From NCBI RefSeq assembly GCF_003334815.1, contig NZ_QOWO01000029.1: 52,109 bases of DNA. One strand, 5' to 3'. The position numbers and the translations under genes are program-made. A model generated the notes under the pieces. It searched no databases and was not told the origin of the DNA. It saw nothing but the letters and a program-made list of their open reading frames with translations. Below are positions 30,236-30,479 of the stretch, one piece after another. How positions within the stretch are numbered: position 1 is the first letter of the stretch; each line of letters begins with the position of its first letter. The stretch comes from Escherichia coli (lineage in GTDB: Bacteria; Pseudomonadota; Gammaproteobacteria; Enterobacterales; Enterobacteriaceae).

Positions 30236-30276
30236 ATTTCCTTCGTCTTTCACGCCATAGCGGCGTTGGCGTCGCC

Positions 30277-30320
30277 CGCTCACCCCGGTCACTTACTTGT
30301 GTAAGCTCCCGGGGATTCAC
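30277..30320. repeat. ERIC/IRU core inverted repeat inside the ahpC-ahpF spacer
   Basis: cgctcaccccggtcacttacttgtgtaagctcccggggattcac matches the ERIC core (ERIC1R/ERIC2 primer region) with few mismatches. The full ~127-bp element probably extends on both sides. Confidence 0.65.
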
Positions 30321-30479
30321 AGGCTAGCCGCCTTGCTCTGACGCGAAATACTTCGGAAATTCACCTAATTCTTCGGGTGCTGCGGCACCCGATTTTCTTC
30401 CCCGCACCATGATGCAAGCTGCATCCAGGTAGCCGCAGAGGCCGCTTGCATGATGATGTTTAAAGCCCAGGAGATAAAC

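Follow-up and report, generated by a model that had tools for sequence, protein, structure and literature searches.

A dispersed ERIC repeat, a conserved terminator-like hairpin and a hairpin with a mapped RNase III site in the ahpC-ahpF spacer of Escherichia coli

Layout of the ahpC-ahpF spacer

The proteins AhpC and AhpF both rank among the most abundant of E. coli. They are needed in unequal amounts, AhpC being the more abundant product, and the spacer between their two genes is where we place the setting of this inequality. We analyzed this spacer within a 52,109-nt stretch of E. coli DNA (contig NZ_QOWO01000029.1), which we refer to as the window and to which all positions below belong. 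With ahpC ending at 30235 and the ATG of ahpF at 30480, the spacer is 30236-30479, i.e., 244 bp. Sequence comparison demonstrated that it is base-for-base identical to that of E. coli K-12 MG1655, and the DNA around the features described here is of E. coli K-12 type. The RefSeq annotation of the K-12 ahpC-ahpF spacer contains no repeat feature. The genes and features that we locate are as follows:

29672-30235, + strand: ahpC coding sequence, 187 aa, with a TAA stop codon at 30233-30235 (from the ORF list; b0605 of MG1655)
30236-30361, no strand assigned: full-length ERIC/IRU element of 126 nt that follows the ahpC stop codon directly (from the core match, the outer inverted repeat and the consensus boundaries)
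30235-30241, no strand assigned: left terminal inverted repeat AATTTCC, pairing with 30355-30361
30277-30320, - strand: central core inverted repeat of the ERIC, 44 nt, 0 mismatches
30355-30361, no strand assigned: right terminal inverted repeat GGAAATT, read from the sequence and pairing with the left repeat
30373-30399, + strand: intrinsic-terminator-like hairpin, UCGGGUGC-UGCG-GCACCCGA followed by UUUUCUU, with the stem-loop at 30373-30392 (from terminator scan, fold and covariation)
30405-30458, + strand: hairpin 2, 54 nt, an imperfect stem of about 20 bp with 21-nt arms and an RNase III site inside
30469-30473, + strand: Shine-Dalgarno sequence of ahpF, AGGAG, 6 nt before the ATG (read from the sequence)
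30480-32045, + strand: ahpF coding sequence, its ATG at 30480 being the annotated start of b0606 in MG1655

When the whole spacer is folded, three independent hairpins are predicted, corresponding to the ERIC, the terminator-like hairpin and hairpin 2. A preliminary description of this DNA had placed the ERIC inside the ahpCF transcription unit, and published data agree with this, in that ahpCF forms one operon with three upstream promoters (Conway et al. 2014) and an RNA spanning the ahpC-ahpF spacer is present in an rnc mutant (Gordon et al. 2017, PMC5371410). A promoter scan of the spacer identified no sigma-70-like promoter, and we therefore dropped the idea of an ahpF promoter carried by the ERIC.

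Our Rfam search (E <= 1, region 29400-30800) matched the enterobacterial sRNA family STnc70 (RF02069) at 29434-29527 on the + strand, in the dsbG-ahpC intergenic region. This match scores 42.7 bits (E = 6.7e-07), compared to a gathering score of 40, and at its end lies a hairpin with a T-run, immediately 5′ of the ahpC promoter region. Within the spacer, the same search returned nothing beyond partial, sub-threshold matches to two ERIC-related sRNA families, V_AS5 (Vibrio; 22.8 bits vs a gathering score of 96) and CssrA (Shigella; 19.4 bits vs 93), both of which we rejected as assignments for the ERIC. Their alignments, at 30239-30360 and 30190-30289 respectively, both on the - strand, cover parts of the ERIC, and it is probable that the V_AS5 and CssrA sRNAs, at the loci where they were described, include sequence derived from an ERIC.

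The ERIC element and its variation

Using a degenerate 44-nt core pattern (the region of the ERIC1R and ERIC2 primers), we observe a single match in the 52-kb window, with 44 of 44 positions matching, compared to 0 matches expected from 100 shuffles. This exact match falls at the same coordinates, 30277-30320, at which the core inverted repeat had been described from the letters of the 244-bp spacer, and the mRNA strand here carries the reverse complement of the conventional ERIC core orientation. That the pattern represents a real repeat is evident from metagenomic sequences, where a scan for the core returned at least 120 stretches in 34 distinct flank contexts, one of them the ahpC site and the other 33 independent of it. 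Alignment of one representative per context demonstrated high conservation over approximately 30236-30361, with only background levels on both sides, and a profile built from the 33 copies at sites other than ahpC matches 30225-30364 (E = 1.2e-27). Since these 33 copies were selected through their core, we scored the arms separately: in-register identity to the 33-copy consensus is 22/41 (54%) for the left arm, 41/44 for the core and 26/41 (63%) for the right arm, compared to 2/41 and 10/41 (5-24%) for the sequences flanking the element in the same register. Thus, the likeness to the ERIC consensus extends outside the core, where the preliminary description had suggested looking for it, and is moderate there. 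Profiles made from the arms only gave no significant match when the 52-kb window was searched blind with nhmmer, and the ahpC-site ERIC is therefore an arm-diverged copy, its arm similarity resting on in-register identity beside the core.

The outer inverted-repeat arms of the element occupy 30235-30261 and 30335-30361, and its ends are 7-bp terminal inverted repeats, as listed for ERIC (Delihas 2007). The first A of the left terminal repeat, at 30235, is the final base of the ahpC stop codon, and the TA flanking the element on the left is also supplied by this TAA codon. On the right, the flank is CA in E. coli, i.e., there is no clean TA duplication, and it is TA in Enterobacter sp. Bisph1 and Citrobacter sp. 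FP75. Searching 5,426 complete E. coli genomes with the ERIC as query, we find between 1 and 15 matching places in each genome, with a median of 8, which shows that the query belongs to a dispersed repeat family. A typical ERIC is an imperfect palindrome of approximately 127 bp. The family traits that we observe here are the core, the whole-length palindrome, the dispersed copies and an intergenic position within a transcribed region, and the ahpC-site copy, with its canonical size and diverged arms, is a full-length ERIC, i.e., a known kind of repeat. Copies at this place were reportedly recorded in the original descriptions of ERIC/IRU, whose examples are said to include the S. typhimurium ahpC-ahpF spacer; our literature search, with the primary ERIC papers outside its scope, found no relevant mention of ERIC together with ahpC or ahpF.

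The transcribed strand of the ERIC is predicted to form a single long hairpin interrupted by mismatches (-46.1 kcal/mol, z = -3.3), in keeping with the earlier proposal of an ERIC hairpin in the operon mRNA. As read from the sequence, no U-tract lies 3′ of the ERIC stem, and 118 nt and two stable hairpins separate the element from the Shine-Dalgarno sequence of ahpF. The minus-strand open reading frame at 30324-30506, which had been put down to translation of the repeat, does exist, but only 38 of its 183 nt lie within the ERIC, so that this explanation is mostly inaccurate.

Allele-specific searches of the 5,426 complete E. coli genomes assigned 5,417 in all to three forms of the spacer:

Full allele: 244-bp spacer, the K-12 form, with a full ERIC; 1,764 genomes
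Short allele: 170-bp spacer, with a 74-bp internal deletion that includes the whole core; 2,511 genomes
ERIC-less allele: 128-bp spacer, with no recognisable ERIC; 1,142 genomes

Of the complete E. coli genomes, 21% therefore lack the ERIC and 46% have it in the internally deleted form, i.e., 67% are without the full element. The full allele is present in MG1655, ATCC 8739 and HS, the short allele in W, Nissle and an ST131 strain, and the ERIC-less allele in O157:H7 and O104:H4. Comparison of one representative per allele class demonstrated that the sequence from the terminator hairpin through to ahpF, hairpin 2 included, is the same in all three. The short allele retains a hairpin of 52 nt (-19.8 kcal/mol), and differs from the full allele at 4 of 48 terminal ERIC positions, the remainder of the spacer being identical; two of these four substitutions convert mismatches into pairs in the shortened stem. 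Approximately 5,430 matches to the ahpC-ahpF spacer were found in E. coli, two of them on plasmids and the rest chromosomal.

The same site is occupied in other genera. For example, a full ERIC in the same orientation lies 3′ of the ahpC stop codon in Citrobacter werkmanii, Enterobacter sp. Bisph1, Kluyvera and Superficieibacter, and the short form follows ahpC in Escherichia albertii and in one MAG, indicating that the alleles either predate the species or were exchanged. Citrobacter sp. FP75 contains a 15-nt remnant made up of the two terminal repeats. REP-like elements take the position of the ERIC in Citrobacter youngae, Pseudocitrobacter and Enterobacter asburiae, so that repeats of different families have landed recurrently in the stretch between the ahpC stop codon and the terminator. 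At three loci (L006, L007 and L011), the first 40-85 nt or so after the ahpC stop codon contain REP-like palindromes (GCCTAC..GTAGGCCGG).

Among the five full same-site copies, from five genera, 95.6% of stem cells are paired over 41 stem pairs, seven of which have compensatory changes that fall in about two clades. The copy in Superficieibacter electus (L016 2065-2190) is identical to K-12 positions 30236-30361 at 120 of 126 nt (95%), compared to 82-90% identity for ahpC and ahpF coding DNA, 53% at four-fold sites of ahpF and 27% in the linker just after the ERIC, and this similarity stops exactly at the right end of the element. The Kluyvera, Citrobacter and Enterobacter copies are 79-86% identical to the K-12 ERIC. 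Taken together, the paired stem, the near-identity with Superficieibacter and the stem-repairing substitutions point to constraint on the hairpin, gene conversion or exchange of the element, and the ERIC may contribute more than a passenger would. One metagenomic contig (L170), compared to 29672-32071 of the window, is 92-95% identical over the 5′ two thirds of ahpC, 100% identical from about 30072 to about 30671 (the whole spacer with the ERIC) and approximately 79% identical at the 3′ end of ahpF. We did not use this contig as a recombinant carrying a K-12 spacer in a foreign ahpCF, since it is possibly an assembly chimera.

The terminator-like hairpin and hairpin 2

A hairpin resembling an intrinsic terminator begins 11 nt after the ERIC, with a stem of 8 bp (6 of them GC pairs), a loop of 4 nt and a following TTTTCTT, and with a predicted fold of -16.6 kcal/mol (z = -5.7). 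Our terminator scan of the region identified four sites compared to 1.3 expected, of which 30373-30399 is one. We took the ahpC-ahpF spacers of 20 Enterobacterales, 65-245 nt in length, from a genome scan that returned 80 loci, Salmonella and Klebsiella not being among them. The hairpin and T-run are present in essentially all 20, with or without an ERIC, and range from Escherichia to Providencia, Pectobacterium, Brenneria, Rosenbergiella and Arsenophonus; species lacking the ERIC, with spacers of 65-80 nt, retain the hairpin. Across these 20 spacers, 97.5% of stem cells are paired, and four of the eight pairs show compensatory double changes. The covariation score of this stem was reached by 0 of 500 shuffles, and registers slid along the alignment pair at only 33-44%. 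Among more distant ahpC-ahpF loci (L025-L084), 26 of 49 contain a terminator-like hairpin between the two genes, including those of Pseudomonas, Variovorax, Snodgrassella and Marinobacter, and an intercistronic attenuator thus seems to be a common design for the ahpC-ahpF operon. We propose, on the basis of sequence and conservation, that 30373-30399 terminates transcription in part, or attenuates it, where ahpC ends. A literature search covering Term-seq, Rend-seq and intrinsic terminators returned nothing usable on ahpC 3′ ends at this site.

Hairpin 2, which lies between the terminator-like hairpin and the Shine-Dalgarno sequence of ahpF, has arms that are 81% complementary and a predicted fold of -23 kcal/mol, and its length is that of about two turns of double-stranded RNA. 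Among 12 Enterobacteriaceae the arms of hairpin 2 (ACCATGATGCAAG and GCTTGCATGATGATGTTT) do not vary, and its apex does; we detect no covariation in the hairpin 2 stem among these 12, the stem being conserved at the sequence level. An in-frame ATGATGATG is located at 30450-30458, in the 3′ arm of hairpin 2 and 30 nt upstream of ahpF in E. coli. The same motif opens a uORF of approximately nine codons in Citrobacter and Enterobacter, with a stop codon overlapping the ahpF ATG (TAATG), and is out of frame with ahpF in Pseudocitrobacter.

An RNase III site designated "intergenic (ahpC-ahpF)" has been mapped at NC_000913.3:639695 (Gordon, Cameron and Pfleger 2017, PMC5371410). Mapping of this coordinate places it at window position 30422, in the 5′ arm of hairpin 2 and 61 nt downstream of the ERIC. 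At this position the published reads number approximately 3,600 in the rnc mutant and 4 in the wild type, a ratio of approximately 900, and cleavage by RNase III was confirmed in vitro with a template that held the whole spacer, the ERIC included (PMC5371410). The same study reports a half-life for ahpC mRNA of approximately 14 min in the wild type vs approximately 6 min in the rnc mutant, with ahpF unchanged, and concludes that cleavage of the spacer by RNase III stabilises ahpC mRNA (Gordon et al. 2017, PMC5371410). Sites in that list are at least 400 bp apart (PMC5371410), so that an additional RNase III cut may take place inside the ERIC stem.

Expression of ahpC and ahpF, and known systems

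We consider it likely, with a probability of about 0.7, that ahpC and ahpF expression is governed by a 3′-UTR and intercistronic region made up of three modules, in which the ERIC is dispensable and does not set the ahpC:ahpF ratio. The ERIC, a MITE-like imperfect palindrome, would be an old insertion between the ahpC stop codon and a much older, conserved terminator, and, once transcribed, would form the beginning of the ahpC 3′ UTR, where it is predicted to fold into its long mismatch-interrupted hairpin. Most likely, judging from its GC-rich stem and U-tract, the terminator-like hairpin ends a part of the transcripts at 30393-30399, which would yield abundant ahpC-only mRNA. RNA that reads through into ahpF would be cut by RNase III in hairpin 2, separating the two cistrons, the cleavage itself being that reported by Gordon et al. 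(2017). Both routes would leave an ahpC mRNA that ends in stable structures, one of which, in K-12-type strains, would be the ERIC, and the ERIC would at most be an extra 3′ structure shielding this mRNA from 3′-5′ exonucleases, by analogy with REP elements. Because the full ERIC is lost or deleted in most E. coli and the terminator and hairpin 2 are the same in one representative of each allele class, the ERIC is most likely a dispensable 3′-UTR hairpin of ahpC, and at most an accessory stabiliser.

The preliminary description had instead suggested that the ERIC hairpin explains the lower expression of ahpF than of ahpC, by partial termination, RNase processing or translational effects. The ERIC does lie inside the operon RNA and its predicted hairpin is strong (-46 kcal/mol), and the whole spacer, ERIC included, was in the substrate that Gordon et al. 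used for RNase III in vitro. Against this explanation, the ERIC stem has no U-tract behind it, RNase III cuts at a mapped site in another hairpin, 61 nt downstream, 118 nt and two hairpins lie between the element and the ahpF ribosome binding site, the full element is missing from 67% of E. coli genomes, and the terminator hairpin is retained in Enterobacterales without an ERIC. Since the element lacks a U-tract, is far from the ahpF ribosome binding site and is dispensable in most E. coli, it is an unlikely cause of the step-down from ahpC to ahpF, and we give this explanation little chance of being correct. There is less to be said still for a switch of the kind modeled for Yersinia, in which terminating ribosomes would melt the basal stem of the ERIC, expose an RNase E site in its distal repeat and so destabilise ahpC mRNA (the model of De Gregorio et al. 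2005, as summarised in reviews). Between the ahpC stop codon and the ERIC there is a gap of 0-1 nt, the geometry that this model requires, and the distal arm of the element is AU-rich (CGAAAUACUUCGGAAAUU), but ahpC mRNA is unusually stable in the wild type (the published half-life of approximately 14 min), and published cleavage in the spacer stabilises this mRNA, opposite to the Yersinia effect, where the upstream message is reduced relative to the downstream one. Nor is there an orientation bias among the stop-codon-adjacent ERICs of the 33 independent sites, 6 being in the ahpC orientation and 6 in the opposite one; a rule based on orientation is uninformative and was set aside. We regard such a switch at ahpC as scarcely probable.

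A different reading, which we regard as doubtful, gives the ERIC a role of its own: selection would have kept it at ahpC as a locus-specific structured 3′-UTR element, e.g., as a strong exonuclease block, a platform for protein or RNase III binding, or a source of 3′-UTR-derived RNA, and its alleles would be old and functionally different. The compensatory changes among same-site copies argue for this, but only five full copies were compared and the changes fall in about two clades, and DNA-level processes such as gene conversion can also maintain a palindrome. The 95% identity of the K-12 copy to that of Superficieibacter, compared to 53% for four-fold sites of ahpF and with the similarity ending exactly at the right end of the element, would then reflect constraint or an intergeneric transfer of the element; horizontal exchange is an alternative explanation for it, and the Kluyvera, Citrobacter and Enterobacter copies (79-86%) indicate that constraint is not uniform. 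Stem-repairing substitutions in the short allele, and the occurrence of the short form in E. albertii, with alleles that predate the species or were exchanged, also favor selection, against which stands the repeated loss or truncation of the element. That the ERIC is a selected 3′-UTR module whose three alleles form an ancient or exchanged polymorphism tuning both ahpC mRNA stability and AhpC:AhpF stoichiometry is improbable in our view.

Under the three-module reading that we prefer, the useful outcome of this analysis is a corrected anatomy of the spacer, with the terminator hairpin and the RNase III hairpin, both absent from the preliminary description, as better regulatory candidates than the ERIC. 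That description identified the position of a known repeat correctly and gave it more regulatory weight than the evidence supports. The natural full, short and absent alleles also constitute a ready test of the effect of a 3′-UTR ERIC on mRNA stability in E. coli, an effect that to our knowledge has been examined only in Yersinia.

The element at ahpC resembles the ERIC/IRU/RU-1 repeats of Enterobacteriaceae, reportedly described by Sharples and Lloyd in 1990, by Hulton and colleagues in 1991 and by Wilson and Sharp in 2006, in that it is a 126-nt imperfect palindrome with a 44-nt core and 7-bp terminal inverted repeats, is intergenic yet transcribed, lies beside a highly expressed gene and has multiple copies per genome. 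It differs from them in its arms, which are only 54-63% identical to the consensus of the other copies, and in the lack of a clean right-side TA duplication in E. coli. With the Yersinia ERICs, as far as the summaries of De Gregorio et al. 2005 describe them, it shares co-transcription with its neighbors, a place beside a stop codon and an RNA hairpin whose distal arm is AU-rich; unlike there, it is the upstream gene, ahpC, that is more stable and more abundant.

A second likeness is to the REP/BIME elements said to act as intercistronic 3′ stabilisers, e.g., in malE-malF and hisJ-hisQ, reportedly since the work of Higgins and colleagues in 1982. Here too a repeated palindrome separates an upstream cistron of high expression from a downstream cistron that is expressed less, and protection against 3′-5′ exonucleases would, by analogy, be the probable role of the ERIC as well, although the ERIC belongs to a different repeat family and has a much longer, mismatch-rich stem. 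Processing signals at which RNase III cuts between cistrons and a stabilising 3′ hairpin is left behind, such as those of phage T7 early mRNAs and those in ahpC, pflB and yajQ (Gordon et al. 2017), have their counterpart in the imperfect, approximately 20-bp stem of hairpin 2, and here as there cleavage raises the stability of the upstream message (PMC5371410). This last likeness holds for hairpin 2, at 30405-30458, and not for the ERIC.
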